A DNA stretch of 64,000 nt from Pseudomonadota bacterium (lineage in GTDB: Bacteria > Bdellovibrionota_G > JALEGL01 > DATDPG01), in the NCBI GenBank assembly GCA_043809315.1, contig JAZDDX010000029.1, positions 1-64,000 on the forward strand, in the 5' to 3' direction. A program made the position numbers and the translations under genes. Shown one piece after another: positions 1-31,097 of the stretch. Positions within the stretch are counted from its first letter, which is position 1, and each line of letters begins with the position of its first letter. The notes under the pieces were generated by a model that was not told the origin of the DNA, made no database searches, and saw nothing but the letters and a program-made list of their open reading frames with translations.

Positions 1-1
1 T

Positions 2-1012
2 TCCCTCCAGTTCGGCGCCGCCGTCGTCCACCAGCGGGCGCTCCGTCCGGAGTTCATCGCCTGGACGATGAAGACCTACAGGATCAGCCACATGGCGGTC
101 GTTCCGATGCTCTTGAAAGCAATCGAAGGGAAGATCCGCGAAAGACTTGCGTCCCTCCCGCCCTGGAAACGCCCCCTCTTCGGAACCCTCCAGGGGATCA
201 ACCGATTTCTGACACGCAAAACGCCGAATGCGAGCGTGAGCCACGCGCTTCTCCGGCCGATCCACAGATCGTTCGGCGGAAAGATCCAGCTCCTCTTCGC
301 GGGCGGCGCCTTCGTCGACCCTGGTACGGCGCAGTTCCTCTACGATCTCGGGATCCCGGTCGTCATCGGGTACGGCCTGACCGAGGCGGGAACAGTTCTC
401 ACGGTGAACGATCTTCACCCGTATCGAAGCGACACCGTCGGGAAACCGATCCGGAACGTCGAGCTTGCGGTCCGCGACAAGAACCCGGCTGGAATCGGCG
501 AACTCTGGGTCAAGGGGCCGACCGTGATGAAGGGGTACCTCGACGATCCGGAGATGACGGCCGAGACGATCATCGATGGGTGGCTCCGAACCGGCGATCT
601 CGGGTATGTCGATGAGACCGGGCACGTGAAGCTCGTCGGCCGGGCGAAGAACATGATCGTCACGGAGGGGGGGAAGAACATCTACCCCGAGGATCTCGAG
701 GCAACGTTTGACGGCCTCCCCGACACCCACGAACACTGCGTCTTTGCGGCGAACTACGTCTGGCCGACGCAAACGCTGACCGGGGAAAAGCTGATGATCG
801 TCCTCCGCCCGAAAGAGGCGGAGCGACTCGAACCACTCCTCCGGGAAGTGCGGCAAAGAAACGGGCGGCTCGCCGACTACAAGCGGATCGCCGGATACGT
901 CGTCTGGCCGGAGGAGTTTCCGCGAACCGCGTCTCTCAAACTGAAGCGTGATCTTCTGGCGGATGCACTCCGCAAAACGCACGGCCGCGACGAGGTCTGG
1001 AAGGAACTGTAG
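2..1012 (+). CDS. Long-chain fatty acyl-CoA synthetase (AMP-binding), 5' end outside window
   Basis: Frame open from the window edge; adenylate-forming motifs GYGLTE, WLRTGDLG, GRAKNMIVTEGGKNIYP. Confidence 0.85.
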   Translation, partial: SLQFGAAVVHQRALRPEFIAWTMKTYRISHMAVVPMLLKAIEGKIRERLASLPPWKRPLFGTLQGINRFLTRKTPNASVSHALLRPIHRSFGGKIQLLFAGGAFVDPGTAQFLYDLGIPVVIGYGLTEAGTVLTVNDLHPYRSDTVGKPIRNVELAVRDKNPAGIGELWVKGPTVMKGYLDDPEMTAETIIDGWLRTGDLGYVDETGHVKLVGRAKNMIVTEGGKNIYPEDLEATFDGLPDTHEHCVFAANYVWPTQTLTGEKLMIVLRPKEAERLEPLLREVRQRNGRLADYKRIAGYVVWPEEFPRTASLKLKRDLLADALRKTHGRDEVWKEL

Positions 1013-1014
1013 GA

Positions 1015-1914
1015 ATGGAACGGTTGCTTGCCATCGTGAACCCGGCCGCCGGAGGGGGGGGCGGGAAGAAAGAGGGGGAGAAAGCGATCGGTCGCTTCCG
1101 GAGCGCCGGATTTTCCGTCGAGGTGGCCGAGACCTCCCGCCCCGGAGACGCCAGTCGGATCGCCACGGAAGCGTATGCGAATGGCGAACGGAACTTCGTT
1201 TCGGTCGGCGGGGACGGGACCGGGTTCGAGATCGTGAACGGACTTTTCCCGGTCGCGACGGAAAAGCAGGAGCGCCCCTCCCTCGGGTTCGTCCCGGTCG
1301 GAACGGGGAACTCGTTCCTCCGGGATTTCACGAACGCCGGCACCCAATACGCGATCGATTCGATCGTCAGCCACAAGAAACGGTCCTGCGACGTCCTCCG
1401 GGTTCGTCACACGGAGGGAACCCTCTATTTTCTGAACCTTCTGACGATCGGCTTCGCCGCCGAGGTCGCGGCACTCCGGAACCGGAGATTCACCGCGCTC
1501 GGAGAGTTCGGTTATATTCTCGCCACGTTCGCGAAACTGGCGACCCTTGACTCGCACCCGATCCCTTTCCGCGTCGACGACGCGCCGTTCGATCGGGAGC
1601 CGGTGACGTTCATCTCGATCAACAACAGTCGCTACACAGGGGGCCACATGCTCATGGCGCCCGAAGCGGACACCTCCGACGGATACGCCGACCTGATTCG
1701 CGTCGCCCCCCTCGGACGTCTCGCGCTCGTACGGGCGTTCCCGCGGATCTTCAAGGGGACCCACACCCTGTTGCCGGCGGTGACCTGCCGTAGAGTCAAG
1801 AGGATCGACTTCGACCTCGACCGGAAGGTGGTCGTTCAGATCGACGGCGAAACATTGACGCTTCAACCGGAACGGGTCGACGTGATGCCGAGCGCCCTGG
1901 AGGTCTGCGCATGA
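1015..1914 (+). CDS. Diacylglycerol/lipid kinase family protein (YegS/DgkB-like)
   Basis: IVNPAAG, GGDGT, PVGTGNSF and QIDGE motifs. Confidence 0.85.
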   Translation: MERLLAIVNPAAGGGGGKKEGEKAIGRFRSAGFSVEVAETSRPGDASRIATEAYANGERNFVSVGGDGTGFEIVNGLFPVATEKQERPSLGFVPVGTGNSFLRDFTNAGTQYAIDSIVSHKKRSCDVLRVRHTEGTLYFLNLLTIGFAAEVAALRNRRFTALGEFGYILATFAKLATLDSHPIPFRVDDAPFDREPVTFISINNSRYTGGHMLMAPEADTSDGYADLIRVAPLGRLALVRAFPRIFKGTHTLLPAVTCRRVKRIDFDLDRKVVVQIDGETLTLQPERVDVMPSALEVCA

Positions 1915-2651
1915 AACTGCTGCAGTACATTTTCTCGGCGGCCGTCTGGACCCTCTCGTTCGCCTGGATGTCGATCCTGGCGATCGCAACGTTGATCTTT
2001 TCAGCGATCTTTTCGTACCGGAGAGTCCACAGCTGGATCCCCGCCCCCGGCTTCGCCCTGATCCCGCGGATGACCTTAAGCCGCCTCAACATCACGTACG
2101 ATCCGAAGCTCGACCGGAAACGCTTGAGCGTCTTCTGCTTCAACCACACGAACCTTCTCGACGCGCACGTCACCTCCGCATCGATCCCGCACGCCTTCTG
2201 CGGCCTGATGAACGCCTGGCAGTTCAAAATCCCGTTCTACGGCTGGCTGATGAGGATGTCGAAAGGGATCCCGGTCCATCGACGGAGCGGAACGAGCATC
2301 CAGGAGCAGATTACGCGCGAGGCGAAAAAGCGGAAAGAGATCGGGTTCTCGATCCTCGTTTTCCCGGAAGCGCACCGGACGCGGGACGGCCGAGTGCACA
2401 CGTTCCATAAAGGGGTTTTTCTGATGGCGCGCGACGCCGGGTACCCGGTGGTCCCGTGCGCGATCCGCGGGAGCTATGCCGTCAACCGGAAGGGATCGTT
2501 TCTGTTTGCGCCGGGCAAGATCGACGTCTGGATCGGCCCGCAATACGAGACGACAGGGCTCTCCGATCCGGAGATCGGCGCGTTGGCCCGGGAGTTTCAG
2601 CAGATCATCACCGAGTACGTGGAGTACGAAGAGAAGGAGAAAGCGGCATGA
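1911..2651 (+). CDS. 1-acyl-sn-glycerol-3-phosphate acyltransferase (PlsC family)
   Basis: NHxxxxD (NHTNLLD), FPEAHRT block, N-terminal hydrophobic segment; ATGA overlap. Confidence 0.8.
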   Translation: MKLLQYIFSAAVWTLSFAWMSILAIATLIFSAIFSYRRVHSWIPAPGFALIPRMTLSRLNITYDPKLDRKRLSVFCFNHTNLLDAHVTSASIPHAFCGLMNAWQFKIPFYGWLMRMSKGIPVHRRSGTSIQEQITREAKKRKEIGFSILVFPEAHRTRDGRVHTFHKGVFLMARDAGYPVVPCAIRGSYAVNRKGSFLFAPGKIDVWIGPQYETTGLSDPEIGALAREFQQIITEYVEYEEKEKAA

Positions 2652-3271
2652 CCGAGATGGCAGTCGACAAGAGAATCACACGGGCGATCGACCAACGGAA
2701 GCAGCGCAAGGGGGAGATCGTGAAGGCGGCGCGCAGATTGATCAGCGAGAAGGGGTACGCAGCCACGTCGATCGCCGACATCCTGGAAGTGGCCGACATC
2801 TCGCGCGGCACGTTTTACACCTACTTCGAGAGTCGCGAGGCTCTCTTCCACGACCTGGTCGACGACTTCGCCCGCCGTTTGATGGCCTGCATCCAGCCGG
2901 TGAAAAAGAATGCCGGGGATCCGATGCAGCTCCTCGAAGCGAACGTCCGCCGCGTGATCGACCTCTTTCTCGAAAACCGGGATTTGACGGTGATTCTGCT
3001 TCGCGAGGCGGTGGCACACGATCGCCTCGTCGATCAGAAATTGCAGCACCTCTACGCGTTTCTGCACCACAACCTTGTCGCCGCGCTCGAGAACGGCGCC
3101 GCGTGGGGGTTGATCCGAAAGGTCGATGAGAAACTCATCTCGGTGGCTCTCTTGGGGAGCATCAAAGAGGTTCTGTATCAATACCTCGTCGTAAAAAAGG
3201 AACCGCTCCCGGACACCGCCGCCATCTCCCGCGAGTTGGTCAATTTCGGTCTCCGCGGCTTAGTCGCTTGA
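2648..3271 (+). CDS. TetR/AcrR family transcriptional regulator
   Basis: HTH GYAATSIADILEVADISRGTFYTYFESRE; ATG at 2648 overlaps the upstream stop. Confidence 0.9.
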   Translation: MTEMAVDKRITRAIDQRKQRKGEIVKAARRLISEKGYAATSIADILEVADISRGTFYTYFESREALFHDLVDDFARRLMACIQPVKKNAGDPMQLLEANVRRVIDLFLENRDLTVILLREAVAHDRLVDQKLQHLYAFLHHNLVAALENGAAWGLIRKVDEKLISVALLGSIKEVLYQYLVVKKEPLPDTAAISRELVNFGLRGLVA

Positions 3272-3274
3272 CCG
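3251..3274 (+). repeat. 24-bp direct repeat, copy 1 (CTCCGCGGCTTAGTCGCTTGACCG)
   Basis: Identical to 6871-6894; flanking bases differ. Confidence 0.95.
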
Positions 3275-3361
3275 GTTCCGGTTGGGCAGTTTCTCGGCAC
3301 AAACCGTCGCCGAGGGTCGCGATTATCGCTTAATATTCGGACACTTAGATTGGCTTAAGCG

Positions 3362-3378
3362 TTGGCCCGAGGCTTGCT
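3362..3378 (+). promoter_or_regulatory. Putative sigma54 (-24/-12) promoter of the subtilase gene
   Basis: TTGGCCCGAGGCTTGCT = TGG-N10-GC with TTGC; nearly the same as the sites at 30858 and 32530. Confidence 0.65.
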
Positions 3379-3391
3379 GACACTAATGAGC

Positions 3392-6300
3392 ATGACTCCC
3401 CATGATCGCCGTTTGGTCTCAATCGGATCGGCGCTTCTCTTCCTGGCGGCCTGCTCGACGCCGGGAACTCCGGATCGGAAAAGCCTTGTCCCCCAGGCCT
3501 TGATCTCTCAAGAATCCCTCACATTTCCAAAGAGTGACGGTACGTTCGGATCGCAGCGATCTCAGGCTCCGTTTTCGCCGACGCATGTTGTCGTCAAGTT
3601 CAAATCGACCATTGCACTCGCGACATCCAACGCTTCTCGGGGAATTGCCACAGCTCCGACTGCTTCGTTGAGTTCGCTATACTCCAAGTACGGAGTCCAA
3701 CGCGCTTCGGCGCTCTTCACATTTGCCGCACCGGCGGCAACCAACGCTTTTCCGACGGTTCTCGATGCGGTCAAACGAAAATTCCCCAAACGGACCCTTC
3801 GCGCCCCGGCCAGCGCCGTCGCACCGGATCTGTCCCGAATCTACGTCCTTACGGTTCCGGACGGAACGGACATTCCTAGAACCGTCGCCGGCTTCGCAGC
3901 CGATCCCGCAATCGAATGGGCCCAACCGGAATATCGTTACACGATCTCCTCCTCGTCACTGCCAAACGACACGTACGTCGATCCCGATCAAAATGGAACC
4001 TGGGCCGTCGGCTCTCTTCCCGGCTTCAGTGCTCTCTTCGATCTTTGGGGACTTGAACGGATCGGAATGAAGGACGCATGGGCGATCACCCAAGGGGTGG
4101 GGGTCGTCGTCGCCGTCGTCGACACCGGCGTCGACTACAAACACAAAGAGTTCTTCCGCGACACGAACGGAAACGGGGTTCTCGATCCGGGGGAGCAATA
4201 CAATATCTGGATTAACCCGGGTGAGGATTTAAACCACAACGGAACCGTTGATGGAACCGACACCTGTCCGATTCCCAACGGAGATTTCGACTGCGTCGAC
4301 AACGACGGGAATGGTTTTGTCGATGACATCGCCGGCGGCAGCTTCGCGGGGGGTTCGAACGACCCGATGGATCCTCACGGACACGGCACCCACGTGGCGG
4401 GAACGATCGCGGCCGTGGGGAACAATGCGCTCGGTCTCGTCGGCGTGGCGCCGAAGGTGAAGATCATGGCGGTCAAGGCCCTCCCTTACGGCAACCTTGC
4501 CAACGCGGTTCTGTATGCTGCTTTGAACGGCGCGGACATCATCAACAACAGCTGGGGATGCGTCGGAGCGCACTTGAAAGACCACGCCCTCGAGGAGGCG
4601 TTCACCACGGCCTATTCTCTCGGCGTGGTTTCGGTCTTCGCAGCCGGAAACGACGCCGTCCCGGCGGATCTTTGCAGCCCCACCAATATGACGGATGCAA
4701 AACCGATCGTCGTAGCCGCATCGTCGCATGACGCCGGAGACGCGATCTGGGAGCATTCCGACTCGGGTGTTCTCATCGACGTCGCGGCCCCCGGCGTAAA
4801 CATTCTCTCCCTTCGAGCTTCGGCCTACGTGGGCGGCGATGGAATGCCGCTCATCGTCGACAACGATTACCTGATGGCAACCGGAACTTCCATGGCCGCC
4901 CCCCATGTCTCCGGCATGGCGGCGCTGGTCCTTGCTCTCCACCCGACATTAACCAATGAGGAGGTCCGCCAGATCCTTCGGGTTTCCGCGCGCGACACCG
5001 GAACGCCGGGATTCGATCTCCGAAACGGAGCGGGGCGGGTCGATCCTACGGCCGCCCTTGCTCTTTCTTCGGCTCCGACAGTCAAGATCGACACACCTGT
5101 CTACGGCGCGAGTTTTTCGTCTCTTTCCGGGACCGTGTCGATCACCGGATCGGCCGGAGGGCCGGGTTTTCAGCACTATCAATTGTTCGTCACCGATCGG
5201 ATTGAAACCCGCATGTCTTGGATCGCGCTTGGCCCGGTCGTTACGGCATCCGTGTCCAAAGGGAGCCTCGGCCAATTCGACCTCTCCCCCCTTTCCGACG
5301 GTCGGTATGACCTAATCCTGGTCGTGAAAACGAATGATGGAAAGGAGTTCCTCGACATTCACGAGCTGTTGGTCCAGGCGGCTCTTCCGCGTCTGCTCAG
5401 TGCGAGCGCAAGCTACGGCGATCCAGCCGTGTCCGGAAAGACCGTCGTCTGGCATGAGTTCGAGAACGATTTCAGCCGAATCCGCGCCATCAATCTGGAA
5501 TCGAACGTCGCGTATTGGATCACACCAGCCAGCTCGGACATGGGCGCGTTCTCCCCTGCGATCGACGGTTTCCGAATCGCATGGATTCAAAGCGATTTCG
5601 CGACCGGGAACCAAACCGTTCACAGCTGCGTGATCGACCCCGTATCCGGAAACTGTCCGGAGGAGCTGATCCCACTCACGGGAATGAACGACGATCATCC
5701 CGCCATCTCCGGAAGCCGCTTGGTCTGGCTCGCGAAGCCGAGGACTCCTCCCGCCAACCCCACAACCGATCCGGAGAGCGACGTCTATCTCTTCGACTTC
5801 GCTAATAACGGCGCCGGTCTTCAAAAGATCACTTCCCACGCGACCGCCGTGAACCGCGTGTCCATCTCGGGAACCAAACTGGTGTGGGAAGATCTTCGAA
5901 CCGGCTCGTCGGAGATCTATCTCTACGATCTCTCGGCTCCGACCAACGGCGAGGTGAGAATCACGCCGCAGGATTCGCCGGGAGATTTCCTCACACAAGG
6001 AATCGGCCTGAAACCGACGATTGTAGGGAATCGGATTGTCTATCAAATGCATCGTGGGGAATGGAACGGATTCTGGAAAATCTTTCTCTACGATCTCGAT
6101 CGAGCGGAATCCGGAGAACAGCAACTCAGCGAAGATAATGTGGCCGCTAATGATCTGGCGTTCTCCGGCCGGTTTGTGATCTGGAGCGAATCGGACGGTC
6201 AAGCAGATCTCATCCGTTTCGATCTCTCGACGCACAAACGAGAATCACTTACGCATAGCTGGGAGGACGAGCTACTACCGACCGCTTCGGGGGATCGGAT

Positions 6301-6868
6301 CGTCTATTTGAGAACGCCCCGAGAGGGGCTTGGGGGGAACAACAGCCTTTTCCTCTGGACCGCCGCAGCCAGGATCTCCGTTACGCCCGGGTGGAATCTC
6401 ATCTCGGTCCCGATGGAAGATCTGATCTCACGGCAAAAGGTCGATCTTTTCCCCTCCGCGACTTCGAGTGCCTTCGAATACACGGTAAAGGGGTACCAGG
6501 TGGCATCAACCCTCTCCCCCGGAAGGGGGTACTGGCTTAAATTTGGGGCCGCCGAAACAATCGCCCTCGTAGGAACGCCTCTCTCCACCATCGACGTGCC
6601 GGTGGAAAAGGGGTGGAACATCGTCGGGTCGGTCTTCAATCCGATCGAGACCTCCACCGTGATGTCGCCGTCCACACCGCCGATCGGGATCCTGGGTTCA
6701 TTCTTCGATTATTCCGGGGGTTACAACGCGAGAACGCAGCTCCAGCCAGGAACGGGATACTGGGTAAAGACCGACATGGCGGGGGTTCTGCGCTTTTCCA
6801 GCGGATCGACAACCGCGCCGCTCGCGCCCCAACTGCATTCTTCGACCGAAGTACCGGCCGCTTTCTAA
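3392..6868 (+). CDS. Lipoprotein S8 (subtilisin-like) peptidase with propeptide, beta-propeller-like repeats and a duplicated GWN domain
   Basis: Lipobox LAAC; triad VVDTG / HGTHVAG / GTSMAAPHVSG; AAGN oxyanion Asn; repeated PAISGxxxVW units; two GWN...PGxGYW repeats. Start may be 3386 or 3392. Confidence 0.9.
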   Translation: MTPHDRRLVSIGSALLFLAACSTPGTPDRKSLVPQALISQESLTFPKSDGTFGSQRSQAPFSPTHVVVKFKSTIALATSNASRGIATAPTASLSSLYSKYGVQRASALFTFAAPAATNAFPTVLDAVKRKFPKRTLRAPASAVAPDLSRIYVLTVPDGTDIPRTVAGFAADPAIEWAQPEYRYTISSSSLPNDTYVDPDQNGTWAVGSLPGFSALFDLWGLERIGMKDAWAITQGVGVVVAVVDTGVDYKHKEFFRDTNGNGVLDPGEQYNIWINPGEDLNHNGTVDGTDTCPIPNGDFDCVDNDGNGFVDDIAGGSFAGGSNDPMDPHGHGTHVAGTIAAVGNNALGLVGVAPKVKIMAVKALPYGNLANAVLYAALNGADIINNSWGCVGAHLKDHALEEAFTTAYSLGVVSVFAAGNDAVPADLCSPTNMTDAKPIVVAASSHDAGDAIWEHSDSGVLIDVAAPGVNILSLRASAYVGGDGMPLIVDNDYLMATGTSMAAPHVSGMAALVLALHPTLTNEEVRQILRVSARDTGTPGFDLRNGAGRVDPTAALALSSAPTVKIDTPVYGASFSSLSGTVSITGSAGGPGFQHYQLFVTDRIETRMSWIALGPVVTASVSKGSLGQFDLSPLSDGRYDLILVVKTNDGKEFLDIHELLVQAALPRLLSASASYGDPAVSGKTVVWHEFENDFSRIRAINLESNVAYWITPASSDMGAFSPAIDGFRIAWIQSDFATGNQTVHSCVIDPVSGNCPEELIPLTGMNDDHPAISGSRLVWLAKPRTPPANPTTDPESDVYLFDFANNGAGLQKITSHATAVNRVSISGTKLVWEDLRTGSSEIYLYDLSAPTNGEVRITPQDSPGDFLTQGIGLKPTIVGNRIVYQMHRGEWNGFWKIFLYDLDRAESGEQQLSEDNVAANDLAFSGRFVIWSESDGQADLIRFDLSTHKRESLTHSWEDELLPTASGDRIVYLRTPREGLGGNNSLFLWTAAARISVTPGWNLISVPMEDLISRQKVDLFPSATSSAFEYTVKGYQVASTLSPGRGYWLKFGAAETIALVGTPLSTIDVPVEKGWNIVGSVFNPIETSTVMSPSTPPIGILGSFFDYSGGYNARTQLQPGTGYWVKTDMAGVLRFSSGSTTAPLAPQLHSSTEVPAAF

Positions 6869-6870
6869 AC

Positions 6871-6894
6871 CTCCGCGGCTTAGTCGCTTGACCG
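6871..6894 (+). repeat. 24-bp direct repeat, copy 2; contains the TTG start of the radical SAM gene
   Basis: Identical to 3251-3274; begins 2 nt after the subtilase stop. Confidence 0.95.
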
Positions 6895-8006
6895 CGGCAC
6901 CCGTTCTTCGGCATCCTCCCCCCGTGCCACACCCGGGAACAACCGATTTCACGAAAACCCCCTTCCTCGTCATCTGGGAGACGACCCAGGCGTGCGACCT
7001 CACCTGCCGCCACTGCCGTGCCTCTGCCGAACCGCACCGGCATCCGACCGAACTGTCGACCGACGAAGGGAAAAAACTTCTCGCCGACATCCATCAGATG
7101 GGTTGCCGCATTGTCGTATTGAGCGGCGGGGATCCACTCAAACGCCCCGACCTCTACGATCTGATCCGCCACGGCCGCTCCCTCGGTCTCCGGATGGCGA
7201 CGATTCCGGCTGCAACCGATCTCTTAACCCGCGACGTTTTGGTGAAGCTCAAGGAATCGGGACTCGAACAGGTCGCCTTCAGCCTCGACTTCCCGACCGC
7301 CGAGCTTCACGACAACTTCCGCGGAACCCCCGGCGCCTACGCGAAGACGCTCCAGGGGGTTGAGTGGGCCCATTCGGTCAAGCTCCCGAGCCAGATCAAC
7401 ACGACGATCACCGCCCTCTCCCTCCCGTATCTGGAAACGATGGGAGAGCTGGTTCAGAAGTTCGGGATCGTTTTTTGGGAGGTGTTCTTCCTCATCCCGA
7501 TGGGACGGGGAAAGCTGCTGGAGGCGCTCGACGCCGAGCAATGCGAGGGGGCGTTCAAACTTCTCTATGATGTCCACAAACGCTGTTCGTTCGTCCTCAA
7601 GGTGACCGAGGCACCGCACTACCGCCGCTATGTCGCGCAGCGGGAAGGGGTGACGCAGGGACTCCCTGAGCGTCTCCGCCGCTCGGAAGGGCCGGGAGGG
7701 ACGGTTGGGTACGCGCTGCAAGCGGTGAACTCGGGGAACGGCTTCCTGTTCGTTTCGTTCGACGGGAACATCTTCCCGAGCGGATTTCTCCCCTCGTCCG
7801 GCGGGAACGTCCGGCGCGATTCGATTGCCGAGATCTATCGGAACGCCCCGCTCTTCCTCGACCTTCGGAACCCGTCGAAGCTCAAAGGGATCTGCGGACG
7901 ATGTGAGTACAAGGCGATCTGCGGCGGGTCGCGGTCACGCGCGTTCGCGACGACGGGGGACTATCTCGCGGCGGAACCTTGGTGTGTCTACCAGCCGCTC
8001 ACTTAG
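6888..8006 (+). CDS. Radical SAM/SPASM protein (AhbD/NirJ-like, resembles the TIGR04053 family)
   Basis: CDLTCRHC motif, SGGDPL, SPASM CGRCEYKAICGGSRSRA...EPWC. Confidence 0.85.
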   Translation: MTAAPVLRHPPPVPHPGTTDFTKTPFLVIWETTQACDLTCRHCRASAEPHRHPTELSTDEGKKLLADIHQMGCRIVVLSGGDPLKRPDLYDLIRHGRSLGLRMATIPAATDLLTRDVLVKLKESGLEQVAFSLDFPTAELHDNFRGTPGAYAKTLQGVEWAHSVKLPSQINTTITALSLPYLETMGELVQKFGIVFWEVFFLIPMGRGKLLEALDAEQCEGAFKLLYDVHKRCSFVLKVTEAPHYRRYVAQREGVTQGLPERLRRSEGPGGTVGYALQAVNSGNGFLFVSFDGNIFPSGFLPSSGGNVRRDSIAEIYRNAPLFLDLRNPSKLKGICGRCEYKAICGGSRSRAFATTGDYLAAEPWCVYQPLT

Positions 8007-8463
8007 CGGCTTTTTTCCCTTCCCCGGGAGGGGACGTGGCTATCAGATCGTCGAACTTCTTGAGCTGCTCTTTCGTGAGCACTTTCTTCTCGGTCAGCAC
8101 CGTCCAGGTCCGGAGCTTGATCAGCTCCCCCTGTAACGACCCGATCTGATCCGCCTTCTGATCGAGCTTCCTCTGGCTCGGATCGTCGTCGCGGAGAAGC
8201 TCGTGCAGCGCAAGGCGCGCTCGGTAGAGATCTTTCCAGAGCTTGCGCCGTTTTTCCTGCGCCTCCATTCGCACCTTCTCGAGCTTCTTGACCTGCGCTT
8301 CCATCAGGCCGAGTTCGGTCGTGTACCAGAGATAGACCGAATCATGCGCATCCCCCAAGTCGGCCCCGATCCAGTCTCCCGGTTGTTGCATCGCCGGGGG
8401 TTCTGCCCGGGCGAAGAAGGGAGTGAATGCGAGAAAAACGAAGAGAGGCAGATATCGTTTCAT
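7999..8463 (-). CDS. Periplasmic Spy/CpxP/ZraP-like helical protein
   Basis: Signal peptide MKRYLPLFVFLAFTPFFARA; LGLMEAQ and VLTKEQ (LTxxQ-like) motifs. Confidence 0.7.
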   Translation of the reverse strand: MKRYLPLFVFLAFTPFFARAEPPAMQQPGDWIGADLGDAHDSVYLWYTTELGLMEAQVKKLEKVRMEAQEKRRKLWKDLYRARLALHELLRDDDPSQRKLDQKADQIGSLQGELIKLRTWTVLTEKKVLTKEQLKKFDDLIATSPPGEGKKAAK

Positions 8464-8495
8464 GCGCTCATTTTCGGCCGCTTCTTCCCCATCCG

Positions 8496-9110
8496 TCAAG
8501 CGGATCGGAGCAGTCCGAGTTTGTCCGCGAGACGATATATTTGCGGACCTAAGGCGAAGGAACCGAGGATCAAAAGGGCAAGGCTCGTGTTGCCGACGAT
8601 GCCGCGAATGACCAGGGCCCTCTCGATCGAATATTTCCAGGACACCCATCCATAAAATGCCGCCTTCGCGATGAAGTAGGCGACCCAAAGAACCGTGAGC
8701 CAGCGGAAAAAAAGGACCTGTTTCGGTTTCATCGGCTCCGTCAGGTTCTTCTTTCTCTCAAAGAACTCCTGAATGATCGATTTCTCACCGAAAATCGTGG
8801 CTCCGAAAAAAAGCCCCACGATGACGTTCGTCATTGAGGCTTCATATTTGAAGAGAAACGAGTCCTTCAAGGTCAGATCAATCAGCCCGAAGACGATTGC
8901 GATCGTGGCCGAGAACTTGAAAAACATTGTCGTCTTCTCGCGGCGGGTTCGTTTGTAGACAATCTCGCCGATCGTCCAGATCACCGCCATCGCGATCGCC
9001 GGCTTGAGCCCCCAGAAGTGGTTTGTCGCGTAGAAAACGATCAGGGGCCCGAAGTTGGCAAAGGCATAGGTCACAGTCGACAACAGCTTGCCTTTCACTC
9101 CTCTCCGCAT
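8496..9110 (-). CDS. YciB/IspZ-like (intracellular septation A) inner-membrane protein
   Basis: About five TM helices; FGPLIVFY start and 'LTLKDSFLFKY' pattern. Confidence 0.6.
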   Translation of the reverse strand: MRRGVKGKLLSTVTYAFANFGPLIVFYATNHFWGLKPAIAMAVIWTIGEIVYKRTRREKTTMFFKFSATIAIVFGLIDLTLKDSFLFKYEASMTNVIVGLFFGATIFGEKSIIQEFFERKKNLTEPMKPKQVLFFRWLTVLWVAYFIAKAAFYGWVSWKYSIERALVIRGIVGNTSLALLILGSFALGPQIYRLADKLGLLRSA

Positions 9111-9121
9111 ATCCTTGCGCC

Positions 9122-9748
9122 GTGTTTCCGTCGACTTATCTCGGCGTCCGCCCGTACCGCGAGGTCTGGGAGCTTCAAGAACAACGCAGGGCCGCCATCC
9201 TCGCTGGGAAGGAGGAGGGGATCCTTTATCTCCTCCAGCACCCCCCAACCATCACGCTCGGCCGAGGCGAAAAAGGGACCAACCTCCTCTACCCAACGGA
9301 AGAGTTGAAAAAGCAGGGGTTCGACGTCGTCGAGACGAACCGCGGCGGGATGGTGACGTACCACGGGCCGGGGCAACTGATCGCCTATCCGGTCTTCGAC
9401 CTCCGGAAACTGCACAAAGGGGTCAAACAGTTCGTCGACGGCCTCGAACGGACGATGATCGGCTGCCTCGCCCGCATCGGGATCAGCGCTCATCAAAGGA
9501 AGGGGTACATCGGGACCTGGGTCGGGGAGAAAAAGATCGGAGCGATCGGGATCCATGTCCGGCGGCAGGTCTCGATCCACGGTCTCGCGCTGAACGTCGC
9601 CACCAACCTGGATCATTTCAATGTCATTACCGCGTGCGGGATCGAGGGGATTCGGCTAACGTCGGTTCAAAAGGAAGGAGTTTCCCGGGACGTTCCGGGG
9701 ATCCTCGAGCCGTTCCTCGAGGCGTTCACGGAAGTTTTCGGAGCGTAG
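9122..9748 (+). CDS. lipB: Lipoyl(octanoyl) transferase
   Basis: QHPPTITLG, RGGMVTYHGPGQ, KIGAIG, HGLALNV, ACG; GTG start inferred. Confidence 0.9.
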   Translation: MFPSTYLGVRPYREVWELQEQRRAAILAGKEEGILYLLQHPPTITLGRGEKGTNLLYPTEELKKQGFDVVETNRGGMVTYHGPGQLIAYPVFDLRKLHKGVKQFVDGLERTMIGCLARIGISAHQRKGYIGTWVGEKKIGAIGIHVRRQVSIHGLALNVATNLDHFNVITACGIEGIRLTSVQKEGVSRDVPGILEPFLEAFTEVFGA

Positions 9749-9750
9749 CC

Positions 9751-11031
9751 ATGTACAAGTCTCTCAAAGGAATGCCTGATCTTCTCCCCGGCGATAGCGA
9801 GCGCTGGCAGGGGATGGAAGACCTCTTGCGGAAGATCCTCTCGTCGTTCGGGTACTCGGAGATCCGGACCCCGTATCTCGAAGAGACCGAACTGTTCGCC
9901 CGTTCGATCGGCGCCGCGACCGATGTCGTCGAGAAGGAGATGTTCACCTTCCAGGACCAAGGGGGAAGCTCGATCACGCTGCGCCCCGAAAACACCGCCG
10001 GGGTCGTCCGCGCCTATCTGGAGAACAACCTCGGACACGGAAACCCGCTCACGAAGCTCTATTACATTGGACCGATGTTCCGTCACGAGAGGCCGCAGAA
10101 AGGGAGATTTCGTCAGTTCTCGCAGATGGGGGTCGAGGCGATCGGAAGTGCTCACCCGATGGTCGACGTCGAAGTGATGACCCTTCTCACCAACGTCGGG
10201 GAGGCGTTCGGTTTGCCGGGGCTCAAACTCGAAATCAACAGTGTCGGCGACAAGAACTGTCGTCCAGCGTATCGGAAGAAGCTCAAAGAGTATCTCGTGG
10301 CACATGTCGCCGATCTTTGCGATAACTGCTTCCGCCGCGTCGATTCGAATCCGATGCGTGTCTTCGATTGCAAGTCGGAAACCTGCCAGGGGATTCTGAC
10401 CAGCGCGCCAAAGATTTCCGATCATCTCTGCGGCGACTGCCGCGATCACTTTGATCAGGTGAAACGAGGACTCGACACCCTCGAGGTCGACTATTCGCTT
10501 CGCCTCTCGATGGTGCGCGGTCTCGATTACTACACACGAACCGCCTTCGAACTGAACGCTCAAGGGCTCGGCTCCCAGAACGCCGTCGGAGGGGGGGGGC
10601 GATACGACGGCCTGATCGAAGAGCTGGGCGGACCATCGACTCCGGGGATCGGCTTCGCGATGGGGCTCGAGCGGCTCCTCCTCTCCGCGTCCAATTTCAA
10701 AGTTCCTTCCTCTTCCCGCCGGTTTTCCTTCATCCCGCTCGACAAAGACTCGGAGCCGATCGCCCTCGCCCTCTCGCAGGAGTTCCGGAAGAAACTCTTG
10801 ACCGGGAACCGCTCTGCCACGGTCGAGACATCGTTCGGCACCACGAGCCTCAAGAGTGCCCTCCGTCAGGCCGACCGGAGTAAGGCCGATTTCGCCGTTC
10901 TGATCGGCGAGTCGGAGCGGATGAAGAAGATCGCGACGGTCAAAAATCTGGCCGCGCATTCGCAGAAAGAAATCCCATTTGAACAACTGACCGAACATCT
11001 GCTGAAGGAAACCGATGGAAGCGCTTTCTGA
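9751..11031 (+). CDS. hisS: Histidine--tRNA ligase
   Basis: [36 protein letters not shown]. Confidence 0.97.
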
Positions 11032-12805
11032 TCGTGAACGGACCCACACGTGCGGTGAGCTGGCCCTGCAGGAGGTCGGCTCGAAAGTGCTGCTCAAAGG
11101 ATGGGCGCACCGCCGGAGGAACCTCGGCGGCGTCATCTTCGTCGACCTCCGGGACCGGTACGGTCTGACCCAGGTGGTTTTCCGCCCCGAAGCGAACCCG
11201 AAGGCGCATGCCGAAGCGGACAAGATTCGGAACGAGTTCGTCCTGGCCGTCTCGGGGCGCGTGGAAGCACGACCGCAAGGAATGGTGAACCCGAAACTCC
11301 CGACCGGTGAAATCGAGGTCGTCGCCGACGGCATCGAGATCGTCGCCGAATCGAAACCTCTTCCGTTCGCGATCGACGAGGAGACCGATGCGTCGGAAAC
11401 GACCCGCCTCAAATACCGCTATCTCGATCTCCGTCGCCCCGAACTCCAGCGGAACTTCATCGCCCGTCATCGACTCACGCAGACGATCCGCCGGTTTCTC
11501 GACGAGTCCGGCTTCCTCGACGTCGAGACACCATTCCTGACGAAGTCGACACCGGAGGGGGCGCGCGATTATCTCGTCCCGAGCCGGGTCCATCCGGGGG
11601 AGTTCTATGCCCTGCCGCAGTCGCCGCAGCTCTTCAAACAGCTCCTGATGATCGCCGGGTTCGACCGCTACTATCAGATCGTCCGCTGCTTCCGGGACGA
11701 GGATCTCCGCGCCGACCGCCAGCCGGAGTTCACCCAACTCGATATGGAGATAGCGTTCCCGACGCAGGAAGGGCTCTTCCATCTCGTCGAAGGGCTCTTC
11801 GCGCGGATCTGGAAAGAGGTGCTCGGGATCCGTCTCGAAACTCCGTTCCCCAGGATCCCCCATTCGGAAGCGATGGAGCTGTACGCCAGCGACAAACCGG
11901 ACCTCCGCTGGCCGATCCCGCTCCGGAACCTTTCGAGCACCTTCGTCAGCACGAAATTCAAGGTGTTTCAGGAGGTGATCGGTCGCGGCGGCGAAATCCG
12001 CGGCATCCGACTGCAGGGCGGAAGCTCCCTTTCCCGGAGCCAGATTGATCAGTTGACCGAGAAAGCGAAAGGGTTCGGCGCCAAGGGGCTCGTCACCGTA
12101 AAGCGGGCGAGCGGAAAGATCTCCTCGCCGGCCGAGAAGTTCCTGACGCCGGAGGAACTCGACTCGGTCGCGACCAACCTCAAGTTGGGAGAAGGGGATC
12201 TCGCCCTTCTCGTCGCAGACCAGCCGTCGGTGGCTCGCGCCACGTTGAACGGCCTGCGCGACCACTGCGTCGCCCAGATGAAGATCCCGCCGGTCGCGTC
12301 GTACGCCTTCGCCTGGGTGATCGACTTTCCTCTCTTCGAATACGACGCCGAGGAGAAACGGTACGTCGCCAAACACCACCCGTTCACCTCCCCCCATCCC
12401 GACGACCTTCCCCTCCTCCGGGAGAGGAAGAACCTTGATTTGGTCCGGGCGCGCGCCTACGACCTGGTGGCGAACGGCTACGAGCTCGGGGGTGGATCGA
12501 TCCGGATCCATCGAACAGAAGTCCAGCAGGTGATGTTCGACGCGCTCGGGATGACCCGCGAGGAGGCGCAGCGAAAGTTCGGCTTCTTCCTCGAGGCGCT
12601 CCAATACGGAACGCCGCCGCACGGGGGGATCGCCTTCGGGATCGACCGGATCGCCATGATTCTGGCCGGATCGAACGCGATCCGTGACGTCATCGCCTTC
12701 CCGAAAACCCAGAGCGCCGTCGACCTGATGGCGGAAGCCCCCTCCCCGGCCGACCCGAAGCAACTCCGGGAACTGTTCCTTTCGCTCGCGAAACCGGAAA
12801 AATGA
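11015..12805 (+). CDS. aspS: Aspartate--tRNA ligase
   Basis: [51 protein letters not shown]. Confidence 0.97.
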
Positions 12806-13434: not shown

Positions 13435-13799
13435 CCGACGAGCGGCGGCAGCTGGGAAAAGAAGGGGAAGAGCGAGCTCGCGCCTACCTGGAACAAAAAG
13501 GATACCGGTTGATCGAGACGAACTACCGGACCCCTTTGGGCGAAATCGACCTCGTCATGGAGGACGGAAAAACGCTCGTTTTCGTCGAGGTGAAAGCGGG
13601 GGAGAGCGACCGTGATTTTTCCCCTCTCGACCATTTCGATTCCCGAAAACAACGGAAACTCTTAACGCTCGGGCGCGCCTATCTGGCCCGCTTCGGGCGC
13701 AGTCGGGACGGACGCTTCGACCTGCTCTTGGTCACGCGGGAGGGGGTGAAGTTCCGCATTGACCACCTCGAAGACGTCATCCAAGATCCGGGGCCGTGA
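13431..13799 (+). CDS. YraN family (UPF0102) protein
   Basis: LGKEGEERA, GEIDL, VFVEVK, RFD; typical position after rnhB. Confidence 0.9.
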   Translation: MTDERRQLGKEGEERARAYLEQKGYRLIETNYRTPLGEIDLVMEDGKTLVFVEVKAGESDRDFSPLDHFDSRKQRKLLTLGRAYLARFGRSRDGRFDLLLVTREGVKFRIDHLEDVIQDPGP

Positions 13800-15241
13800 A
13801 GGCGAGCAAGCAGAAATGGGCGGCGCTCAAGTTCCGGAAAAAAATCCGGAACGCATTGCTTCTGTATTACTTGACGCCGATTTTCCTGATCCTGACGACG
13901 TCGGCCTCCCTTTTCTACTACACGACCAAGCGAAACCTCGACGAGGAGATGGGAAAGCGGTTGGTCGCGATCGCCCATTCGGCCGCCTCGCAGGTCCGGG
14001 CGTTCCACATGACGGTTCTCGACCTCAAAGACGCCTCCACGGTCACGCATCAGACGCTTCTGCGACGGTTCGAAACAATCCGCGACGTGAACGGCGTGGC
14101 CCGGGTCTACCTCTTCAATTTCTCCGATGAGAGCCTGCTCGACACCGACCCGGCTTCGGCCCCCGGTTCGACCTACGGACGAAACCGCATTCACAGGACC
14201 GAGATCGAGGCGGCCCGGAACCAACGGCCGACCTCCTCCGTCCTGTTTCAGGGCTCCGACGGGAGTTATTACAAGAGCGCGTTCGCTCCGGTCGTGGACG
14301 AGGGAAAAGTGCTCGCGGTGATCGGGGTCGACGGAAGCGCCACCTTTTTTCAGAGTCTGCATCGCCTCGGCAGCCTGCTGATCTACTTCGCCCTGGCCTG
14401 CATCGCGATCATCGTTCTCGTCAGCATGATCATCTCACGCCAGATCGTCACGCCGATTCAGGGACTGGTGGCGAGCGCCCAGCGGATCGGCGAAGGACAC
14501 TTGGAGGAACCGATCCCGATCCGTTCGGAAAACGAGATCGGGTTCCTAAGCTTCGTCCTGGACGAGATGCGGAAGAACATCGTCGCGCGCGACCGCGAGT
14601 TACAGGTCATGCTCCGTGGAGTGGCGCACGAGGTCCGGAACCCCCTTGGAGGGATGGAGCTGTTCGCAGGAATCCTGGCGGAGGAACCGCAGGTCACGAA
14701 AGACCCGAAACTCAAAGACGCCGTCACGAGAATTCAGAACGAGATCGCGACGCTCAAGCACCTCGTCGAGGAATTTCTCGACTTCGCCCGCGGCCCGACG
14801 CTGCAGTCCGTTTCGGTCGACCTGAAATCGTTCTTCGAGGAGATCCGCATCGCTTTCGCCAAAGAGATGGAGCAGAAGGGGATCCGCTTCGCCACTTCGT
14901 TCGACGGCATCGAGCAAGGCGAGTTCGATCCCGACCAGATGCGTCGGGTCTTCCTTAATCTCGTCGTGAACTCGCTTCAAGCGATGCCACGCGGGGGGGA
15001 GATCGCGATCCGCGCGCGAGGGGAAAACGGCCAGTTCGAGATTACCGTCTCCGACACTGGGATCGGGATCCCTCCCGAAAATCTGGAACGGCTGTTCGAC
15101 CCCTTCTTCACGACGAAGGAACAGGGAACCGGACTTGGATTGTCATTCGCCCGTAAAATTGTTAATGCCCACGGGGGCGAGCTCCGCGTCGAATCGACGC
15201 CGGGGGCCGGAACGAACGTCAGCGTGGTTCTCCCGAGGTGA
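13796..15241 (+). CDS. Membrane sensor histidine kinase (2 TM, HAMP, HisKA, HATPase)
   Basis: AHEVRNPL, NLVVNS, DTGIGI, FFTTK, GTGLGL. Confidence 0.92.
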   Translation: MKASKQKWAALKFRKKIRNALLLYYLTPIFLILTTSASLFYYTTKRNLDEEMGKRLVAIAHSAASQVRAFHMTVLDLKDASTVTHQTLLRRFETIRDVNGVARVYLFNFSDESLLDTDPASAPGSTYGRNRIHRTEIEAARNQRPTSSVLFQGSDGSYYKSAFAPVVDEGKVLAVIGVDGSATFFQSLHRLGSLLIYFALACIAIIVLVSMIISRQIVTPIQGLVASAQRIGEGHLEEPIPIRSENEIGFLSFVLDEMRKNIVARDRELQVMLRGVAHEVRNPLGGMELFAGILAEEPQVTKDPKLKDAVTRIQNEIATLKHLVEEFLDFARGPTLQSVSVDLKSFFEEIRIAFAKEMEQKGIRFATSFDGIEQGEFDPDQMRRVFLNLVVNSLQAMPRGGEIAIRARGENGQFEITVSDTGIGIPPENLERLFDPFFTTKEQGTGLGLSFARKIVNAHGGELRVESTPGAGTNVSVVLPR

Positions 15242-15244
15242 TGG

Positions 15245-16603
15245 ATGGCGCAGATTCTCATCGTTGAAGACAATGTGACGATGCGGGAAGGGATCGTTCA
15301 AATCCTTTCGCGTGCCGGGCACGATGTGCGTGCCGCCTCCGGGGGGATCGAAGGGGTGGAGCTGTTTGCACAGAGCACCCCCGACTTCGTCATCAGCGAC
15401 CTCAAGATGGAGGATCTGGACGGGATCGCCGTCTTACGAAAAATTCGGGAACTCTCCCCGGACGCGCTGGTCATGATCATCACCGCCTTCGGAACGATCG
15501 AGGTCGCGGTCGAGGCGATGAAGCTCGGCGCGTACGACTTCATCACGAAGCCGTTCCCGCCGGAGCTTCTGCGCGTCAAGGTGGCCGGAGCTCTCGAATT
15601 CGCGCGGATGCGGGCCGAGAACCAGTATTTCCAGACCGAGAGCCGACGCGAACATCCCGATACAATGACGGGGCAATCGCGCGCGCTCGCCAACGTCCGG
15701 GAGCAGATCGCCCGCGTTGCGCCGGCCGATTCGACCGTCCTCGTGACCGGGGAGAGTGGGACCGGCAAGGAGCTGGTGGCCCGGGCTATTCATGCGCAGA
15801 GCAAGCGCTCCCACCGCCCGTTCATCAAGGTCGATTGCGCGGCTCTGGCCGAGGGGGTTCTCGAAAGCGAGCTGTTCGGCCACGAACGGGGGGCCTTCAC
15901 CGGAGCGGTCCAGAGGAAACAGGGACGATTCGAACTGGCGGACGAGGGAACGATCTTCTTGGACGAGATCGGGGAGATCTCCCTGGCGATCCAGCTCAAG
16001 CTGCTGCGCGTCCTCCAAGATCGTTGCTTCGAGCGGGTCGGCGGAACCCGCACCTTGAAGGTGGATGTCCGCGTGATCAGCGCCACGAACCGGGATCTTA
16101 AGGAACAGATCCGGACGGGACGGTTCCGCGAAGACCTCTATTACAGGCTTCACATCGTTCCGATCGATCTCCCCCCGCTGCGCGACCGGAAAGACGACAT
16201 CGCGGCACTGACGGCACACTTTCTCGACACCCTCGCGAAGAGAAACGGGCGAAAGATCAGCGTGACCCGGGAGGTTCTGGCCCATTTCCGAACGTACCGT
16301 TGGCCGGGGAACATCCGGGAACTCGAGAACCTGCTGGAACGACTCTATGTCCTGACTCCGGGAGACGTCATCGACGTAGCCGCTCTGCCGGACGAACTCA
16401 AAATCATCAATGATCGTGAGGGGATAGAGCTCCCGGACAAGGCCGTGACATTGGATCAAGCACTCGAAACCCTGGAACGTCAGCTGATCTTGCGGGCGTA
16501 CGAGGAGGCGTGCGGGGTCAAGACCAAAACGGCCCAGTTGTTGGGAATCAAGACAAGTGCGCTATACTACAAACTGGAGAAGTATGGGATTGCGAAGGAA
16601 TAA
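15245..16603 (+). CDS. Sigma54-dependent (NtrC-family) response regulator
   Basis: REC domain, GESGTGKE, ESELFGHERGAFTGA, WPGNIRELEN, Fis-type HTH. Confidence 0.95.
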   Translation: MAQILIVEDNVTMREGIVQILSRAGHDVRAASGGIEGVELFAQSTPDFVISDLKMEDLDGIAVLRKIRELSPDALVMIITAFGTIEVAVEAMKLGAYDFITKPFPPELLRVKVAGALEFARMRAENQYFQTESRREHPDTMTGQSRALANVREQIARVAPADSTVLVTGESGTGKELVARAIHAQSKRSHRPFIKVDCAALAEGVLESELFGHERGAFTGAVQRKQGRFELADEGTIFLDEIGEISLAIQLKLLRVLQDRCFERVGGTRTLKVDVRVISATNRDLKEQIRTGRFREDLYYRLHIVPIDLPPLRDRKDDIAALTAHFLDTLAKRNGRKISVTREVLAHFRTYRWPGNIRELENLLERLYVLTPGDVIDVAALPDELKIINDREGIELPDKAVTLDQALETLERQLILRAYEEACGVKTKTAQLLGIKTSALYYKLEKYGIAKE

Positions 16604-25439: not shown

Positions 25440-26339
25440 CTACAAACGGGAAAGGAACGAACGGAGAGCCCCCTTCCGCTCTCCGGTCCCCGGGCCGGTC
25501 CGCTCGAGAACCGCATCGGCGAGACGAAGGAACGCCCCGGCCTGAACCGACTCGGGGTTGACCGCAACGGTCGGCCGGCCGGTATCCCCCCCGCGCCGGA
25601 TCTCGAGGTCGAGCGGGATCTCCCCCAGGAACGGGACCCCGAGTTCGTCGGCGGTTCTCTTCCCGCCGCCGGCGTCGAAAACTGGGGTCAGAGTATGGCA
25701 ATGGGGGCATTCAAAGGAGGACATGTTCTCGATGATCCCCAGGACCGGAACCGACACCTCCCGGAACATCGCGAGGCCGCGCCGGGCATCGATCAACGCC
25801 ATATCGTTCGGCGTCGTCACGATGATCGCGCCCGAAAGAGGAACGGTCTGGACGATCGTCAATTGAGCGTCTCCGGTCCCCGGCGGAAGGTCGAGGACGA
25901 GATAATCGAGCTCCCCCCAGTTCACGTTCCGGAGAAATTCCTGAAGCATTTTCATCACCATCGGCCCGCGCCAGATCACGGCGGTATTCTCTTCCACCAG
26001 GAAGCCGATCGACATGACCTTGAGACCGTAACGGGAGAGCGGCACGATTTTCTGGTCCGGGCCGAGCGTCGGCCGCTCGTTAAGCCCCAGCATGAGCGGG
26101 ATCGATGGGCCGTAGACGTCGGCATCGCAGATCCCGACCGTCTTCCCCCTCCGTCCCAAGGCAAGTGCCAGATTGACGGCCACCGTCGATTTCCCGACCC
26201 CCCCCTTGCCGCTCGCGACGGCCAGGATGTTCCTGACCCCGGGGATCGGCTGCCTCTCGAGGGGGGCCGGTGCCGCCTTCGTGGGGGGCGCGGCCGTGGG
26301 GGGCTGAAACGTAGGAAGTTCGGTCGGTTCTTTCTTCAT
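25440..26339 (-). CDS. Mrp/ApbC/NBP35 family P-loop ATPase (Fe-S carrier)
   Basis: SGKGGVGKST, DADVYGPS, WRGPM, DLPPGTGD, ENMS..CPHC. Confidence 0.92.
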   Translation of the reverse strand: MKKEPTELPTFQPPTAAPPTKAAPAPLERQPIPGVRNILAVASGKGGVGKSTVAVNLALALGRRGKTVGICDADVYGPSIPLMLGLNERPTLGPDQKIVPLSRYGLKVMSIGFLVEENTAVIWRGPMVMKMLQEFLRNVNWGELDYLVLDLPPGTGDAQLTIVQTVPLSGAIIVTTPNDMALIDARRGLAMFREVSVPVLGIIENMSSFECPHCHTLTPVFDAGGGKRTADELGVPFLGEIPLDLEIRRGGDTGRPTVAVNPESVQAGAFLRLADAVLERTGPGTGERKGALRSFLSRL

Positions 26340-27946: not shown

Positions 27947-27981
27947 GCCGACCCGACACGGTACCGTGGGCGACCCCCCTT

Positions 27982-27998
27982 AGCAACCTCGACGCCGA
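27982..27998 (-). promoter_or_regulatory. Possible sigma54 promoter for the Hsp70-Mrp genes
   Basis: TCGGCGTCGAGGTTGCT (GG-N10-GC; CGG instead of TGG). Confidence 0.4.
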
Positions 27999-28049
27999 TG
28001 CTCGCCGGTATTAGCGTCGGAAAACGGTTCGTGATAAAAGCCCTCCCGC

Positions 28050-28136
28050 GCGAAAGTGGCGGAATTGGCAGACGCGCCAGATTCAGGGTCTGGTGCCCGC
28101 AAGGGTGTAGGGGTTCGAGTCCCCTCTTTCGCACCA
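28050..28136 (+). tRNA. tRNA-Leu(CAG)
   Basis: Acceptor stem GCGAAAG/CTTTCGC, anticodon arm CCAGA-TTCAGGG-TCTGG, long variable arm, T-arm AGGGG-TTCGAGT-CCCCT, encoded CCA. Confidence 0.97.
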
Positions 28137-28138
28137 AC

Positions 28139-29293: not shown

Positions 29294-29301
29294 CACTTTG
29301 C

Positions 29302-29330
29302 ATTGCAATCTGTTGTCGGGGTCTTGTCAA
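29302..29330 (-). promoter_or_regulatory. Putative sigma70 promoter of the AAA ATPase
   Basis: TTGACA-17 nt-TGCAAT, 8 nt before ATG 29293. Confidence 0.55.
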
Positions 29331-29366
29331 GTGCGTGATGGAAAGGTTGTCGGGGTCCAAGTCCCC

Positions 29367-30128: not shown

Positions 30129-30131
30129 CGG

Positions 30132-30955: not shown

Positions 30956-31097
30956 TCTTCCATGGATAGATGGTGGTTATTTTGCCTTGCAAATATACCG
31001 CGAGAGGTCGACTTCATTATGATCGCGGAGAAGTGAGGCGAAACCTTGAGGACGTCGAAATTCTCCCTTGGCCGTCTTGTTTACCGAAAAGCCGAAA

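Follow-up and report, generated by a model that had tools for sequence, protein, structure and literature searches.

Several kinds of mobile DNA leave a direct repeat on either side of the segment that has come in. The identity segments of attachment (att) sites are roughly 15-60 bp long. Transposon target duplications, on the other hand, measure 4-13 bp in the IS4 family of insertion sequences (IS) and its relatives (PMC2266710), and the cis-mobilizable elements (CIMEs) have been described as a class that keeps attL and attR while the integration genes are lost (PMC5704250). Close in outline is the wzy locus of Salmonella, which is reported as a single-gene locus with perfect repeats and no identified recombinase that excises as a circle (PMC12074656). 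Here we describe a locus of comparable layout on contig JAZDDX010000029.1 of a Pseudomonadota bacterium (GenBank assembly GCA_043809315.1; Bdellovibrionota_G in GTDB), of which positions 1 to 64,000 were analysed and are called the window throughout. In it, the gene of an S8 subtilase stands between the genes of a TetR/AcrR-family regulator and a radical S-adenosylmethionine (SAM)/SPASM protein, within an operon of lipid metabolism, and two exact copies of a 24-bp sequence bracket the S8 gene.

The 24-bp repeat and the enclosed segment

The 24-mer CTCCGCGGCTTAGTCGCTTGACCG is present at 3251-3274 and at 6871-6894, both times on the plus strand and with 24 of 24 positions identical, as a first-pass annotation of this DNA had stated. 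These are the sole two matches in the window on both strands with up to 3 mismatches, and two matches were reached in none of 100 dinucleotide-preserving shuffles. In an all-against-all search for exact repeats of at least 15 bp no exact direct repeat of the window was longer, except for parts of a single ~225-bp duplication at 30.7/32.4 kb, and unrelated exact repeats did not exceed 17 bp. When the copies were aligned locally, with gaps allowed and 300 nt of flank around each, the homology ended at 24 bp. We conclude that the repeat is real and has sharp boundaries, and that chance does not account for it.

Copy 1 consists of the last six codons of the TetR gene (LRGLVA), its stop codon TGA (3269-3271) and 3 more nucleotides. 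Copy 2 follows the S8 gene, whose stop codon TAA (6866-6868) is its own and not made by the junction, after a gap of two bases, AC (6869-6870); the protease gene ends 2 nt before the second copy, just as had been noted previously. When the TetR protein of the window is aligned with 17 orthologues (48-71% identity), conservation is seen in a C-terminal motif, FGL-x-GL, with L202 nearly invariant and G204 and L205 invariant among the 18 sequences and with tails that are variable beyond. Since the 24-mer encodes these family-conserved residues, copy 1 is the native one and copy 2, located after the S8 stop codon, is a displaced end of the TetR gene. The simplest history to account for a displaced TetR end would be that the TetR gene was once placed directly before the upstream region of the radical SAM gene and that the 3,596 bp at 3275-6870 came between them.

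As the window is part of a metagenome-assembled genome, on a contig of 111,249 nt, a mis-join of the assembly at the shared 24-mer has to be considered. An arrangement in which flank, repeat, S8, repeat and second flank follow each other, however, needs an S8 gene that is bounded by the repeat on both sides, or a 3.6-kb circle with the repeat, which amounts to the same biology, and the repeat itself is TetR coding sequence. The final k-mers of current metagenome assemblers are, in addition, well above 24, and an artefact of this kind appears hardly credible.

By sequence comparison, the S8 protein is an orphan beside well-conserved neighbours. Its best non-self match in an exhaustive scan of 1.84 billion representatives reached 518 of 2640 bits, and among the listed proteins of 571-3372 aa there was nothing between 100% and ~43% identity except for the window's own protein; in 90%-identity clusters, where proteins of 638-2030 aa were covered, the best non-self identity was 37-39%, with about 37-43% across both searches. 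The best relative of the TetR protein, in comparison, shows 71% identity (312 of 438 bits) and that of the radical SAM protein 84% (710 of 838 bits). The G+C content at third codon positions (GC3) of the S8 gene is 0.68 versus 0.78-0.84 in its five operon neighbours, a GC3 at or below 0.70 being found in 5 of the 28 genes measured.

In three relatives, the orthologues of TetR and of the radical SAM protein appear to be located on one contig, as judged from table columns in which both orthologues have the same longest contig (42,607, 61,631 and 2,922,492 nt, respectively) and matching sources. Read from the same kind of columns, none of the 120 best S8 matches is assigned to a contig of one of those lengths. 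A genome scan with the radical SAM alignment extended the comparison to 80 more distant loci, all with at most 63% identity to the radical SAM protein, the genome of the window and its close relatives being outside that collection. The 24-mer was present at none of the 80 loci, homologues of TetR, S8, the acyltransferase, the lipid kinase and the AMP-binding enzyme of the operon were found near the radical SAM gene at none of them either (tblastn, E<=1e-5, >45 bits), and an ORF (open reading frame) of the TetR family stood directly upstream of it in 0 of 71, nine loci having been omitted from this check because their upstream DNA was too short or offered no suitable ORF.

That S8 is an old resident of the operon, which the sampled relatives have lost or are too fragmentary to display, with the 24-bp copy as a secondary product of ectopic duplication or patch repair, would be compatible with the codon usage and the tetranucleotide signature of the gene, both of which are near those of the host. 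Most close relatives are moreover represented by contigs of 1-5 kb, on which a 3.5-kb gene would fragment, the cluster search took in proteins of 638-2030 aa only and the adjacency of TetR and radical SAM genes in the relatives was inferred and not read from DNA. No known process, however, moves a 24-bp copy of a gene end one gene away without flanking homology, the gap below 100% identity extends over all 1.84 billion representatives and the zero differences between the copies argue for a recent event; we consider a long residence improbable. In view of the displaced TetR end, the orphan status of S8 and the contigs apparently shared by TetR and radical SAM orthologues, it is reasonable, but not proven, that the 3,596 bp represent a real lineage-specific insertion, and the same three lines of evidence lend indirect support to the previous proposal that the insertion left both neighbours intact.

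Two foldings of the repeat were observed, neither of which was assigned a function. Copy 2 together with the next 3 nt can form a CCGCGG…CCGCGG hairpin, and copy 1 pairs in a predicted fold with 13 nt at the very start of the insert. A history in which slippage at the two CCGCGG sites first gave a tandem duplication of 19 bp, with the insertion as a later event, was rejected upon reading of the sequence, as it does not produce the CT at the start of copy 2.

Proposed routes of insertion

As far as its sequence can tell, the insert is no recognisable mobile element. Neither an integrase nor a transposase domain was detected in the window ORFs scanned with Pfam (sets of 11, 46 and 17, the last of which includes 14 ORFs in alternative frames that lie inside the insert or overlap it), in agreement with the first-pass annotation, which had recognised none in the window. 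The best score for terminal inverted repeats of the insert, 16, was reached by 31% of 300 shuffles, and direct similarity between the insert ends was not above that of shuffles. The region 3200-6950 had no match in 72,556 plasmids and one 82-nt match of 77% identity, judged trivial, in 50,697 phage records, and Rfam gave 0 matches at E<=1 for positions 1-12000. The sole tRNA gene of the window, tRNA-Leu at 28050-28136, is located ~21 kb from the insert. Features of an att site, on the other hand, are present, namely identical direct repeats at both ends and a repeat formed by the 3' terminus of the target gene, with TetR left whole.

An att-like reading is favoured because the repeat is a gene 3' end including the stop codon and is 24 bp long, which is typical for att sites and atypical for transposon duplications. 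Tentatively, we prefer a real lineage-specific insertion in which a circular intermediate was integrated at the 24 bp of identity. The incoming DNA would have been a circle with the 24-bp identity segment already in it, and Campbell-type recombination with the copy in the chromosome would have placed it between the TetR and radical SAM genes of the lipid-metabolism operon. The catalyst might have been a site-specific recombinase, the gene of which lies elsewhere or has disappeared since, or RecA acting on about the shortest homology that it can use; the Salmonella study gives 23-27 bp as the minimum for RecA/RecBC recombination (PMC12074656), and the 24-bp repeat would be right at that limit. 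The direct repeat would subsequently behave like attL/attR, and the result would be a cargo-only, recombinase-less islet that is now a passenger. Transcripts of the S8 gene would start at its own sigma54-type promoter, arrive from the operon upstream, or both, and transcription would run on into the radical SAM gene up to the terminator at ~8000. While the sequence shows the repeat, its origin in TetR, the intact neighbours, the orphan S8 and the lack of transposon features, the insertion as such, the circular intermediate, the recombinase and this pattern of transcription are what we infer.

Several observations weigh against this route. The codon-usage distance of S8 (0.078) is inside the range of 0.047-0.121 of the 28 genes, and 8.4% of 202 windows of 3.6 kb are further from the window mean in their tetranucleotide signature; with a composition near that of the host, a foreign origin is not shown, and the data are compatible with a donor whose usage is similar, be it the same genome. 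No dyad symmetry was found in the 24-mer, two CCGCGG palindromes existing only in the context of copy 2, and no recombinase gene is present among the scanned ORFs of the 64 kb. The insert is also devoid of element-gene remnants, as its 14 alternative-frame ORFs have no family match, and, with the S8 stop codon 2 nt away from copy 2, arm sites would find no non-coding space on that side. Not least, a 24-bp duplication from a staggered break would present an identical picture.

Such a break is the basis of a strong rival explanation, in which a linear S8 fragment was put into a break with 24-nt staggered ends and fill-in duplicated the 24 bp. An unusual transposase acting in trans, two nearby nicks with end-joining, or a replication template switch to the S8 locus with return 24 nt upstream and re-copying are variants of this explanation; staggered break or template switch would be a one-off event and the repeat would have no att function. 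The anatomy expected is the same, an exact duplication with a sharp 24-bp end and nothing else repeated, and a repeat without symmetry and the lack of a recombinase in the scanned ORFs of the window are in line with it, as is the host-like codon usage of S8, which fits a move from elsewhere in the genome or a transfer from a close relative. Duplications of a variable 8-514 bp are on record for IS1549 and IS1634 (PMC2266710). Nevertheless, neither terminal inverted repeats nor a transposase were found, the random fragment must happen to end 2 nt past a natural stop codon, and 24 bp are far beyond the usual 4-13 bp (PMC2266710), in accordance with the previous remark that the repeat is longer than most IS target duplications. 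Overall, a staggered break is a serious, if somewhat less likely, origin of the repeat.

The preferred entry as a circle can also be extended to a gene that has not come to rest. The S8 gene would be a minimal recombinase-less cassette which still moves, excises as a circle and re-enters via the 24-bp TetR end, a suggestion that we hold to be highly improbable. If true, presence/absence variation of a surface protease would result, as proposed for the Salmonella wzy locus, and single genes equipped with the last codons of a neighbour would constitute a general, unrecognised cargo route into operon junctions that leaves the neighbours unharmed.

The S8 gene, its operon and other features of the window

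The S8 gene is intact and, read from ATG 3386, extends over 3386-6868 of the plus strand, coding for a subtilase of 1160 aa (Pfam S8, 1.7e-45); the window's own gene prediction starts at ATG 3392 with 1158 aa. The protein is composed of a lipoprotein-type signal (…LLFLAAC), a pro-region, the S8 domain (Pfam residues 238-550) and beta-propeller repeats (TIGR04275 repeat), and its alignment to the homologue P0122 covers residues 62-991. The C-terminal ~170 aa are without a Pfam match and lie outside the alignment to the best homologue. In residues ~990-1160 (window positions 6350-6868), two similar halves are recognised by eye (GWN[L/I]…, followed by G-x-GYW[L/V]K).

Apart from this gene, the insert consists of a non-coding head of 111 nt (3275-3385, plus strand), with no Shine-Dalgarno sequence before either ATG. 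As no family is matched by the 14 ORFs in other frames that lie in the insert or overlap it, the earlier description of a single gene plus a promoter-bearing leader stands as far as gene content is concerned. Promoters of sigma54 have the consensus -24 GG / -12 GC, and in the leader the sigma54-type motif TGGCCCG-N4-TTGCT (3363-3378, plus strand) displays both elements with consensus spacing. The pattern TGGC-N7-TTGCW has 2 matches in the window versus 0.29 expected, and two were reached by 4 of 100 shuffles; the motif is probably meaningful, while its role as S8 promoter is unproven. From the C of the -12 GC, the distance to ATG 3386 is 9 nt and that to ATG 3392 is 15 nt, and the transcription start is expected at ~3389, between the two ATGs, so the mRNA would be almost leaderless, which is an odd geometry. 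An NtrC-type sigma54 activator is encoded at 15245-16603, and the activator and its kinase together occupy 13796-16603; a link to the S8 promoter is not established.

A second sigma54-type motif, TGGCACG-N4-TTGCT at 45927-45942 on the minus strand, has the same tight geometry, with the ATG (45914) 14 nt after the C. The gene behind it codes for a signal-peptide protein, with the Shine-Dalgarno-like GAGGGGAG in between. The two tight motifs may give rise to near-leaderless transcripts, or else the motif may have another role.

The operon, on the plus strand, begins in the window with an AMP-binding enzyme (68-1012), the N-terminus of which is beyond the window edge, followed by a YegS/diacylglycerol (DAG)-kinase-like lipid kinase (1015-1914) and a PlsC-like acyltransferase (1911-2651), all three identified by Pfam and NCBIfam. 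The TetR/AcrR-family regulator of 207 aa (2648-3271; Pfam TetR_N, 5.5e-16) comes next, in ATGA overlap with the acyltransferase gene. The junctions 1911-1914 and 2648-2651 are both ATGA overlaps, consistent with the previous view that the other junctions of this operon are coupled. The TetR orthologue group comprises ~80 proteins at E<=2.3e-39 and then falls to 2e-8, which marks a sharp boundary. Downstream of the insert, the radical SAM/SPASM protein scores 438 bits against NCBIfam TIGR04053 (cut-off 395); its gene ends at 8006, and an intrinsic-terminator-like hairpin with T-run (7993-8021, plus strand; 7 pairs, of which 5 G-C) overlaps the stop codon and would represent the end of the transcription unit.

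Two starts were considered for the radical SAM gene, GTG 6924 (6924-8006, 360 aa) and the alternative TTG 6888 (372 aa). The predicted protein of the window has 360 aa, which equals a start at GTG 6924, and three relatives, P0002 (84%), P0003 (80%) and P0013, begin with M-[P/S]-H-P-G at the same alignment column. Among the eight closest relatives (P0002-P0009), four start six residues further downstream of this column, one beyond those and one (P0009) one residue before that point, and the 12-residue extension of the TTG 6888 start is found in 0 of the 8. The TIGR04053 alignment starts at residue 20 of the 372-aa reading; a Shine-Dalgarno sequence is absent before both candidate starts. Altogether, GTG 6924 is likely to be the start. 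The first-pass annotation had placed the TTG start of the radical SAM gene inside copy 2, from which relatives, the 360-aa prediction and the TIGR04053 alignment point away. With the start at GTG 6924, copy 2 would be part of the 55 nt that separate the S8 stop codon from the radical SAM gene, and the empty junction would be composed of the TetR stop codon and a 32-nt spacer. Removal of 3,620 bp does recreate a TTGA in the sequence, as had been pointed out; the coupled stop/start read from it is doubtful, however, the restored junction probably being TetR stop plus 32-nt spacer.

No terminator-like site comparable to the one behind the radical SAM gene was found between TetR, S8 and radical SAM genes, the one weak 5-pair match being within the S8 coding region (6155-6172). 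With no comparable terminator between S8 and the radical SAM gene and a good one after the latter, read-through from S8 into the radical SAM gene is plausible, judging from these predicted sites. Of the earlier claim that the radical SAM gene is now behind a sigma54 promoter, the presence of the motif and the plausible read-through can be retained, but the promoter role of the motif is unproven. S8 and the radical SAM protein as a peptide-maturation pair were considered and found unsupported, S8 being a 1160-aa lipoprotein with propeller repeats; against the model of QhpE-type proteases it scored 25.7 bits, with a cut-off of 165.

A literature search by family name found no papers that name TIGR04053. 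The radical SAM gene has other neighbours in distant relatives, so that its linkage to TetR and the lipid genes is specific to the lineage of the window. A DUF2914 protein is encoded directly upstream of the TIGR04053 gene in 7 distant loci titled Acidobacteriota or Terriglobia (L022, L029, L031-L034, L039). A fused cytochrome b/c is encoded upstream of it in 5 loci (L041, L047, L057, L058, L073), the titles of which read delta proteobacterium, proteobacterium, Deltaproteobacteria or Candidatus Binatus.

Otherwise the window consists of chromosomal core genes, with HisS, AspS, RNase HII, MetG, LeuS, IspD/F, a deformylase and an Hsp70 protein. The ~225-bp direct repeat (30735-30960 / 32410-32630) consists of exact runs of 41, 39, 32 and 19 bp and spans the upstream region and the first ~25 codons of two minus-strand genes, which are spaced by 1,675 bp and begin with the same signal peptide (MTKLKNAFAIISILGLFG…); what is repeated is a promoter plus signal-peptide module. 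The surrounding region, ~27300-32700, has the most atypical tetranucleotide composition in the window, with a GC content of ~0.555 versus 0.61, and lies beside tRNA-Leu; it includes an AAA_14/DUF4143 ATPase gene (28139-29308, minus strand) and several ORFs without family match. On this composition and position it may be a small island at tRNA-Leu, and exact repeats of at least 15 bp that involve the tRNA gene (28050-28136) were not found in the window. A long ORF at 27320-28786 (plus strand) matches Pfam NAD-GH (PF10712), a family known to be an antisense artefact of dnaK; its matched residues 1-202 are antisense to the Hsp70 gene (26336-27946, minus strand), and the ORF is probably not a gene. 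At 51576-52425 (minus strand), a HepT-like ribonuclease and an MNT-type nucleotidyltransferase are adjacent, which is the layout of a HepT/MNT toxin-antitoxin system.

Meaning and comparison with known systems

If the preferred reading holds, the locus is a clean natural case of a gene with its own promoter that was slotted into an operon junction with undamaged neighbours, the duplicated gene end being the sole trace. Cargo-only islets of this kind escape tools that are based on integrases or transposases, and a catalogue of single genes with 15-30-bp copies of gene ends could show the frequency of recombinase-independent or trans-mobilised gene gain. For the organism, the effects would be smaller, with a lineage-specific surface protease added and the radical SAM gene now 3.6 kb further from the operon promoter and downstream of a putative sigma54-type promoter. 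The locus is a single case on one assembled contig.

Integron cassettes are usually promoterless and carry an attC of tens of bases at their end. The S8 insert is similar in that one gene forms a unit with tight boundaries, but differs by its 111-nt leader with a promoter motif and its 2 nt after the stop codon, which leave no room for an attC; for IntI, no Phage_integrase domain was found in the scanned ORFs of the window. Integrative mobile elements exploiting Xer (IMEX) and pdif modules use 28-bp dif-like sites with two inverted arms. Like these Xer-dependent elements, the S8 insert is integrated without a recombinase of its own, whereas its 24-mer is coding sequence of a gene end and has no arms.

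With transposons, including IS1549 and IS1634, the locus shares a direct target duplication that flanks the inserted DNA. Compared with those described, it has neither terminal inverted repeats nor a transposase, a single protein-coding cargo gene and 24 instead of 4-13 bp duplicated (PMC2266710). The CIMEs and decayed integrative elements, as characterized in PMC5704250, resemble it in that attL and attR are kept and the genes for integration and transfer are lost, but they derive from integrative and conjugative (ICE) or integrative and mobilizable elements (IME), usually with remnants of element genes, whereas the S8 insert is one cargo gene plus leader.

The wzy locus of Salmonella Typhimurium DT8/DT30 is alike in its single gene, perfect direct repeats, lack of an own recombinase and asymmetry of the repeats, and RecA-dependent recombination is discussed as its mechanism (PMC12074656). 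Its repeats, on the other hand, are 113 bp long and intergenic (PMC12074656), and those of S8 24 bp and at the 3' end of a gene. Excision, circle, empty-site strains and reversion are documented by experiment for wzy (PMC12074656), and the S8 locus is known from one sequence. Set beside these systems, the S8 islet is a further example of an islet that has no integrase and is flanked by a gene end in duplicate.

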